A DNA stretch of 64,000 nucleotides, taken from assembly GCF_053078305.1 (NCBI RefSeq), contig NZ_CP166879.1; one strand, given 5' to 3'. Under the pieces are notes generated by a model. The model saw only the letters and a list, made by a program, of their open reading frames with translations. It was not told the DNA's origin and made no database searches. Both the position numbers and the translations under genes were made by a program. Positions 50,105 to 50,347 of this stretch are shown here, piece after piece (position 1 is the stretch's first letter; each line of letters starts with the position of its first letter).

Positions 50105-50347
50105 ATGGTGTTGGTCTTAAAGGTGACCGACGGGCTGAGACCCCACTTCTCAGGATGCACCTGTGTACTACCAAGCTAGTACATAAGTTGAGAGGGGGGT
50201 AAGGGGGGGAGTGCCCGTGTGTTAGTGCGAAGCACTGGAACGGGATCTTCCAACAGACGGGTACAGAGGTTAGGTAGATCTCGATCTAAAGGGGGGCACC
50301 CCTGAAAAAACGGCTGCATCAGCAAACTAGTACATCATGGTTAAAAT

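Follow-up and report, generated by a model that had tools for sequence, protein, structure and literature searches.

Introduction

Replication can begin without an initiator protein, as it does at the RNA II origin of ColE1 and at oriF and oriG of phage T4, where the start is made from a hybridised transcript with structured RNA upstream. Mobile DNA can also make use of a host repressor at a cis site that is no biosynthetic promoter, as the cer site of ColE1 does with ArgR in the service of Xer recombination. In mitochondria, the split G-run at CSB II (conserved sequence block II), which lies on the non-template strand and varies in length, drives the formation of a hybrid G-quadruplex and R-loop primer (PMC3488243, PMC4176368, PMC5027508). 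In the early operon of HK022, a lambdoid phage without N, put is a cis-acting structured antiterminator RNA (PMC9378689). Helicase-primase ("Eru") replication modules are common in Shiga toxin (Stx) and other enterobacterial prophages. The Eru1 module has been defined for Stx phages (PMC8044961), and the papers that define Eru modules, this one among them, describe no origin, non-coding or cis-acting control element. Here we analyse a stretch of 64,000 nucleotides from contig NZ_CP166879.1 (NCBI RefSeq assembly GCF_053078305.1), hereafter the window, in which the helicase and primase genes of an apparent prophage are preceded by a 243-bp gap at positions 50105-50347. An earlier note had taken this gap for a candidate iteron-type origin or regulatory RNA. 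Our search of the accessible literature returned no description of the element, of an origin for Eru-type modules or for Fels-1, or of binding sites for TrpR or MetJ in the replication regions of phages, nor any report that host repressors link prophage replication to nutrient supply.

Conservation of the gap and its replication module

The gap is bounded by the stop codon (TGA, 50102-50104) of a 97-aa open reading frame (ORF), p97, and by the start at 50348 of a 122-aa ORF, p122, and it lies upstream of genes for an SF2 helicase and a Toprim primase (Table 1); its limits, non-coding status and placement were as the earlier note gave them. It has 51% G+C (A 67, C 49, G 76, T 51), rising to 57% in its core, and no annotation in any record examined. 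No protein-coding frame is preserved: in near-identical prophages, the G-runs within a 49-aa minus-strand ORF (50176-50325) differ in length by 1-2 nt, which rules out coding.

Loose DNA patterns run against viral and genome collections gave many chance matches, which were filtered with an nhmmer profile. The core profile matches 206 prophage or phage loci in E. coli, Salmonella, Klebsiella, Yersinia, Citrobacter and other genera, and the core was single-copy in all 139 loci tested for copy number as well as in the window. The length, position and sequence of the gap are kept in E. coli phage phi467, Salmonella phage Fels-1, Klebsiella prophages and many IMG/VR prophage contigs, and the element is also present in species-representative genomes of Yersinia, Citrobacter, Leclercia, Cedecea, Pseudocitrobacter and Superficieibacter. 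A p97 homolog was found immediately upstream of the core at each of the 190 loci with enough sequence, and an SF2 helicase gene within 1.5 kb downstream at 181 of 183; the two loci with the element and no helicase (L105 and L111) are truncated prophages.

The flanking proteins are 62-82% identical among relatives, and the core retains long invariant stretches that exceed the conservation of the neighbouring genes. By this measure the gap is a conserved non-coding element tied to the replication module, and such conservation across genera excludes a lack of function. That it might be a chance spacer without function, or else an independent small RNA gene, would fit the missing annotation and is barely credible: a scan of both strands of 50105-50347 for sigma-70-like promoters and terminators found none, which makes an independent small RNA unlikely, and the Rfam search of the gap returned no match either at E <= 1 or at the gathering score.

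Modules made up of p97, the SF2 helicase and the Toprim primase, without O or P genes, match the Eru1 type, and the Eru1 Stx2a phage P14437 has a p97 homolog (47% identical) together with the same G-tract and conserved block. Searches of the module proteins turned up no initiator family. Twelve Klebsiella "plasmid" records carry the element, eight of them 37-42 kb and three about 150 kb in length, and those of 37-42 kb appear to be whole phage genomes and look like excised or episomal phage DNA. The one such record examined, NZ_CP076549.1 (L142, 37 kb), holds the full genome of a phage, integrase included, in which the genes for the helicase and the Toprim primase are the sole replication genes. 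In Vibrio phage 1.148.O (L141, 1710-2062), an AT-rich gap at the equivalent position holds four direct repeats of about 17 bp (TACCG..TA.A.GTATT). Downstream of this gap are a gene that bears the annotation RepL and a homologous helicase-primase pair (54% identity), in what is a classical iteron layout. The lack of a recognisable initiator, the phage "plasmid" without other replication genes and the Vibrio iterons at the same position together place the origin most plausibly in the gap, which is most likely the site of replication start.

The Vibrio relative, the location of the element upstream of the replication genes and its invariant neighbour p97 would all suit a classical iteron origin, in which copies of CTAGTACAT are bound by a phage initiator, much as the earlier note had proposed. 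Two copies of CTAGTACAT do occur, at 50176-50184 and 50327-50335; the first is near the position estimated for it (about 50177-50190), whereas the second begins about 9 nt downstream of its estimated start (about 50318-50332). The shared repeat amounts to 13 nt, CAA(G/A)CTAGTACAT, with a spacing of 151 bp. On both strands of the window CTAGTACA has two copies, both inside the gap; with about 0.84 expected per whole window, two within 243 bp are far beyond chance. However, the "direct repeats" turn out to be the right halves of two 18-bp palindromes, a feature that had been overlooked, as had a hairpin at 50111-50130. When relatives were compared, as the earlier note had advised, the core and the half-sites proved to be conserved, the repeats being palindrome halves and not phased direct repeats. 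Where iteron origins have three or more repeats of about 17-22 bp in helical phase, there are here two copies of a 9-13-nt repeat; moreover, no AT-rich unwinding region is present, and neither p97 nor the helicase or primase covaries with the type of repeat. The absence of phased direct repeats and of an AT-rich segment argues that this is not a classical iteron origin, which we consider highly improbable.

Palindromes flanking the core

The two palindromes, O_L and O_R, are both of an 18-bp GTAC-N10-GTAC type and stand on either side of the core. In the analysed relatives, the core-profile match begins 26-38 bp after the start of O_L and ends 25-29 bp before the start of O_R. Against a TrpR consensus taken from structure 1TRO (TGTACTAGTTAACTAGTACA), O_L and O_R are the best and second-best matches in the whole window. 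As references, the trpR (GTACTCTTTAGCGAGTAC) and aroH (GTACTAGAGAACTAGTGC) operators were located in K-12, and the trp promoter-operator was confirmed upstream of trpL in 5,420 genomes. The natural trp, trpR and aroH operators of K-12 score 14-17/18 against the consensus, and the phage sites score 12-16/18 in 85 of 100 unique elements; in background flanking phage DNA a single position out of 551,722 reaches 14/18 and none reaches 15. In the window there is thus an 18-bp dyad whose half-sites, GNACT/CTAG, are correctly spaced for TrpR. Near-identical prophages have GTATCAG as the left half of O_R, and a variant half-site in such prophages, CTAGTGCAT, is that of aroH.

Position counts for both palindromes show that the GTACTAG and CTAGTAC half-sites are conserved and that the central 4 bp are free. 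A pair-count covariation test, which covered O_L (O_R was judged from the position counts), gave 5 compensatory cells against 11.6 in shuffled alignments, with 499 of 500 shuffles equal to or above the observed value and a paired fraction below the shuffled one. This pattern bears the signature of a sequence-specific protein-binding palindrome, not of a selected hairpin, and O_L and O_R look like binding sites for the host TrpR protein, as predicted from their half-sites and spacing.

A minority of sister lineages have, at the positions of O_L and O_R, in-phase tandem 8-mers matching the MetJ met box, AGACGTCT. These arrays comprise 3-7 met boxes and score 20-23/32 in L072, L076, L085, L069, L046, L208, L223 and L221, against a background maximum of 19/32 over about 550,000 positions; the window itself has no such array (13/32 on both flanks). 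In L072 the left flank reads AAATATTT AGACGTCT ATATGTCT GGATGTAT and the right flank AGATGTGC GGACGCCT AGACGTCC AGATGTAA, a close likeness to the natural metJ/metB operator of K-12, AGATGTCC AGATGTAT TGACGTCC. Yersinia and other hosts have arrays of as many as seven boxes as well as mixed elements, Met-type on the left and Trp-type on the right. Among the 100 unique elements, the left/right combinations were Trp/Trp in 85, Met/Trp in 3, Met/Met in 3, Met/other in 2, other/Trp in 1, Trp/other in 1 and other/other in 5, the last being of the Eru1 Stx2a type. Those Eru1-type elements (L140, L163, L211, L228 and L238) have a different palindrome, TTAGTTGC...GCAACTAA, in the place of O_L, with a symmetric change to TTAATTGC...GCAATTAA in L228. 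By eye, their flanks gave weak partial matches to CytR, ArgR, PurR and Fur sites, and these candidates were dropped.

No association was seen between flank type and the sequences of the helicase N- and C-domains, the primase or p97. Between L072 and L001, identity is 99% both over the N-domain of the helicase and over primase residues 1-160, yet the two differ in their flanks and in the downstream gene. The same regions of L072 and L076 (element at about 3290-3560) are 99% identical to those of phi467; both loci, however, carry an element that is entirely of the Met/Met type, and a 206-aa ORF unrelated to p122 stands in the place of that gene. A near-identical module with another element and another next gene means that the element plus downstream gene were apparently swapped as a cassette.

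Such swapping between near-identical modules would also be expected if phage-encoded proteins read the palindromes and the 8-mer arrays, their likeness to TrpR and MetJ operators being convergent. The greater divergence of p122 in the non-Trp flank types (37-48% identity) and the Eru1-type flanks, which match no operator that we could identify, point the same way. However, no module protein tracks flank type, over half of the loci lack p122, and the majority of these have Trp-type flanks. The same palindrome is found across many genera, and the annotated neighbouring regulators (repressor and Cro) differ between them. In addition, half-site, symmetry and spacing are those of TrpR sites, and nearly every base of the arrays agrees with the natural metB operator. 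We therefore think a phage-encoded reader improbable: the persistence of Trp-type palindromes without p122 and in many genera, with a flank type independent of the module proteins, favours a host factor.

If host repressors do bind, the sites could be operator decoys that, once amplified with the phage genome, titrate TrpR or MetJ and derepress host synthesis of tryptophan, aromatic compounds and methionine or S-adenosylmethionine (SAM) in aid of phage production, their position beside the core being incidental and owed to non-coding DNA that tolerates them. The interchangeability of Trp- and Met-type sites, the existence of mixed elements, the 3-7 met boxes per array, the many near-consensus sites (16/18) and the absence of a promoter beneath them would all be in keeping with decoys. 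Against this, the sites are constant in position, one on either side of the core, there are only two of them per genome, and Eru1-type phages do without them. Titration as the purpose of the sites is decidedly improbable in our view.

The core: G-tract and Block 2

The core, between the palindromes, has a polypurine G-tract on the non-template strand with respect to rightward transcription, a variable hairpin and an invariant segment of about 40 nt, Block 2 (Table 1). The G-runs reported in the earlier note are there, the second one, AAAGGGGGGCACCCCTG, at 50288-50304, and so is the short hairpin, a 4-bp GGGG/CCCC stem at 50291-50302 within AAAGGGGGGCACCCCTG. The G6-N3-G6 pattern of the first tract is unique in the window. 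In 65 of 66 unique variants, 1-4 bases other than G separate two runs of G4-8; the remaining one (L208) reads G5-ATAAA-G5. Among prophages about 99% identical (L025, L039 and L058), the run lengths vary at the place corresponding to window positions 50194-50209, with G6, G7 or G8 in the first run and G7 or G8 in the second; this could be slippage-type heterogeneity or sequencing error. The window therefore carries a discontinuous G-tract on the non-template strand, a feature resembling CSB II. Part of Block 2, GGTTAGGTAGATC, is kept in the Eru1 Stx2a phages too. As a sigma-54 promoter, an ops/RfaH site, or a DnaA or IHF site, Block 2 gave weak partial matches by eye, and these assignments were dropped.

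RNA hairpins and the leader RNA alternative

The hairpin that follows the p97 stop codon, P1, occurs in relatives as one or two tandem copies. Over 43 distinct hairpins, 85% of the cells were paired, as compared to 42-45% with the partner slid by 1-3 columns, and compensatory cells numbered 62 against 17.9 in shuffles, with none of 500 shuffles reaching the observed value; a caveat on the covariation is that only hairpins with 5 or more of their 6 inner pairs had been selected beforehand. The 31 G-U cells place the structure on the + strand. P1 thus bears the signature of an RNA (or single-strand) hairpin that is separate from the palindromes, and to this extent the regulatory RNA of the earlier note is borne out, whereas the free-standing small RNA, lacking promoter, terminator and Rfam match, is not.

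The other pairings are less informative. The P2 stem is a possible one, proposed from the minimum-free-energy fold, and its inner pairs, by eye, differ by subfamily (UCUCAUUG/CAAUGAGA in phi467, UCUCGUUU/AAACGAGA in L004). P3 shows compensatory changes, to AGCGC-GAA-GCGCU in L069 and L072 and to CCGC-GGA-GCGG in L046, and other subtypes have different hairpins at its position. P4 pairing is always possible and hardly varies, which makes it uninformative. Relatives have a short G/C hairpin and an A-rich run at the equivalent of 50291-50310, variable in sequence; without a T-run, the GGGG/CCCC hairpin is not terminator-like.

These observations bear on the possibility that the region acts in cis on the early rightward transcript only, as a leader RNA, with the palindromes as incidental hairpins. 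Such an RNA could serve in processive antitermination in a phage without an N gene, in mRNA processing or stability, or in translational control of p122 and the helicase. The covariation of P1 with its invariant loop and its + strand-specific G-U pairs, the compensatory changes in P3 and the better folding of the + strand of the gap than of the - strand (z = -3.4 vs -1.65) would support this, as would an untranslated stretch within an operon, without a terminator, and the Shine-Dalgarno-like purine tracts and mini-ORF that overlap the p122 start. However, O_L shows no covariation and its arms are fixed, which is the signature of a protein-binding DNA site, and met-box arrays, as 8-bp phased direct repeats, are left unexplained by RNA folding. 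The core has no consistent fold and no Rfam family, and the next start codon lies about 13 to about 75 nt beyond the element, according to whether p122 is present. An identity with HK022 put was tried and rejected, since against HK022 nhmmer returned nothing at E <= 10 and BLAST nothing meaningful, and no second copy of the element, as nutL/nutR logic would have it, was found in the window. We consider it unlikely that a leader RNA accounts for the whole element.

A proposed origin or control region

The reading we favour, and hold tentatively, with somewhat less than even confidence, is that the gap is a single-copy, cis-acting and transcription-dependent origin or control region gated by host repressors, for which we infer both binding and function. 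A split non-template G-tract as at CSB II favours a transcription-dependent origin or control region with repressor-bound borders. In this model, early rightward transcription from a cro-side promoter would cross the gap, and the split G-tract with its downstream block would promote a persistent RNA-DNA hybrid or opened region, comparable to the R-loop or hybrid G-quadruplex of mitochondrial CSB II or of ColE1. There the helicase and primase of the phage would take over, perhaps joined by p97. The flanking palindromes would bind the host Trp repressor, with MetJ met-box arrays substituting in sister lineages, and the bound holo-repressor would gate transcription through the core, or its opening, coupling replication to amino-acid or SAM supply. 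P1, after the p97 stop codon, would be a separate RNA-level signal. The TrpR-like sites, as sequences, suggest that phage replication is tied to the amino-acid status of the host.

Several points weigh against this reading. The spacing between O_L and O_R varies from 146 to 165 bp and is out of phase with the DNA helix, and the promoter scan of the gap found none overlapping O_L or O_R, unlike at natural TrpR and MetJ operators; inspection by eye for -35 and -10 elements around both sites in several subfamilies gave nothing consistent. The resemblance to TrpR and MetJ sites was noticed post hoc. A repressor that sits within a transcription unit generally makes a weak roadblock. Eru1-type elements retain the core without Trp- or Met-type flanks, so the flanks are not essential to it. 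The G-tract of the window is not a canonical four-run quadruplex motif, and core folding z-scores run from -2.8 to +1.1 across 19 subfamilies, with no consistent structure. Classical origin features are absent, as the G+C content shows and as inspection for DnaA boxes and iterons, which found none, agrees. Finally, the covariation of P1 shows that some part of the gap, at least, functions at the RNA level.

More doubtful is the wider proposition that a large family of temperate enterobacterial phages, with relatives of the Eru1 Stx2a phages among them, has built TrpR (with tryptophan) and MetJ (with SAM), apparently interchangeable between lineages, into an initiator-less helicase-primase origin or control region, so that the amino-acid or SAM status of the cell would gate phage DNA replication, or else has amplified sites that titrate them, and that the G-tract is a bacterial counterpart of the primer-forming CSB II. 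What the analysis provides is a conserved candidate control element with base-level parts and natural variants, which predicts an unexpected input from host TrpR or MetJ. If the proposal is true, borrowed host repressors would link nutrient status to prophage replication and also to the dosage of toxin genes once the prophage is induced, and the element would offer a bacterial system for priming that depends on a G-tract and R-loop.

Neighbouring genes and other features of the window

Table 1. Positions of the predicted elements of the gap and of the adjoining genes in the window
Feature	Coordinates	Strand	Description
p97 gene	49811-50104	+	97 aa; directly upstream of the element
P1 hairpin	50111-50130	+	Stem UUGGUC/GACCGA, nearly invariant octaloop UUAAAGGU; after the p97 stop codon
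P2, possible long stem	50146-50195	+	CUUCUCA (50146-52) with UGAGAGG (50189-95), O_L at the tip; minimum-free-energy fold
O_L	50165-50182		18-bp palindrome GTACTACCAAGCTAGTAC; TrpR-operator-like, 14/18; right half is the first "repeat"
G-tract	50190-50211	+	Polypurine GAGAGGGGGGTAAGGGGGGGAG, G6-TAA-G7; non-template strand for rightward transcription
P3 mini-hairpin	50224-50236	+	AGUGC-GAA-GCACU
P4	50237-50251	+	GGAA...UUCC pairing leading into Block 2
Block 2	50247-50287	+	CTTCCAACAGACGGGTACAGAGGTTAGGTAGATCTCGATCT; most conserved stretch, about 40 nt, two GATC sites
Small hairpin	50291-50310	+	GGGG/CCCC, then A6
O_R	50316-50333		GCATCAGCAAACTAGTAC; TrpR-operator-like, 13/18, degenerate left half; right half is the second "repeat"
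Mini-ORF	50337-50351	+	ATGGTTAAAATATGA (ATG GTT AAA ATA TGA); stop overlaps the p122 start codon (ATGA)
p122 gene	50348-50716	+	122 aa; dispensable, in 80/183 loci
SF2 (RadD-like) helicase gene	50750-52408	+	Replication gene downstream of the element
Toprim primase gene	52410-53378	+	Replication gene downstream of the element

Searches with the p97 sequence against Pfam, NCBIfam, PADLOC and PDB gave no match. Its AF2 model is a generic three-helix bundle for which Foldseek found no fold match, and the third helix is Arg-rich and nearly invariant. Synteny alone makes p97 a candidate reader of Block 2 or P1. The earlier note had placed it in the cII position, and no relation to cII was detectable; a 136-aa ORF on the - strand (48320-48730), to the left of cI, encodes a CII-like HTH protein (phrog_4836, 8e-29), and with such an ORF beside cI p97 is probably not the cII analogue.

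Pfam searches with p122 and p288 gave nothing significant, p122 showing a faint NERD/nuclease-like hint (E = 0.22). Loci without p122 keep TTCTTCCTGGAAGAGT upstream of the helicase (about 3620-3640 in L005, and equivalents), which corresponds to p122 codons 9-15 (50374-50397 in the window) and looks, by this match, like a deletion scar. The overlap of the mini-ORF with the p122 start may reflect translational coupling, and comparable mini-ORFs are found in phi467 (ATGGATAAAAAAGTATGA) and L003 (ATGGAGAAATTATGA).

Just downstream of the replication module, Rfam identified a sok antitoxin at 54776-54947 (RF01794, 97.6 bits), which by this match indicates a hok/sok-type toxin-antitoxin locus in the prophage. 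An STnc100 small RNA (RF02076, 167.6 bits) was matched further downstream of the module at 59719-59930, upstream of a 673-aa ORF (60034-62055). REP-type naRNA4 matches at 17546-17616 and 40587-40777 suggest that host chromosome runs up to about 40.8 kb and that the prophage begins a short way beyond.

Comparison with known systems

The phage palindromes are like the E. coli TrpR operators (trpEDCBA, trpR and aroH) in being 18-bp palindromes with GTACTAG and CTAGTAC half-sites and a free central 4 bp, and their scores overlap those of the natural sites (12-16/18 vs 14-17/18). They differ in having no recognisable promoter overlapping them and in being paired, 146-165 bp apart, around a non-coding core within a phage operon, and their binding of TrpR is predicted. 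The flanks of the sister lineages are like MetJ operators, which are tandem copies of AGACGTCT, in having 3-7 contiguous in-phase 8-mers, as a comparison of AGACGTCC AGATGTAA in L072 with AGATGTCC AGATGTAT in K-12 illustrates; unlike those operators, the phage arrays have no promoter context, and the window lacks them.

With the lambda-type and plasmid iteron origins the element shares a location by the replication genes, in the early right operon for the phage, where it would be transcribed through; it has neither phased direct repeats nor an AT-rich unwinding element, and it does not lie inside an initiator gene. HK022 put is a short RNA of about 70 nt with two stem-loops and two copies (putL and putR), whereas the phage element is a single copy of about 230 nt.

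The likeness to CSB II and OriH of mitochondria lies in a split non-template G-run of variable length, downstream of a promoter and in a replication control region, with G6-TAA-G7 here and G5-6-A-G7-9 there. The phage element would use the bacterial multisubunit RNA polymerase and has a longer spacer. The parallel, drawn from the sequences, is an analogy only. In contrast to ColE1 RNA II and T4 oriF and oriG, the phage element has no promoter of the antisense RNA I type and no sequence similarity to them. ColE1 cer serves recombination and not replication, and uses ArgR and not TrpR or MetJ, but it too is a case in which a host amino-acid repressor has been borrowed, as we propose for the phage element.

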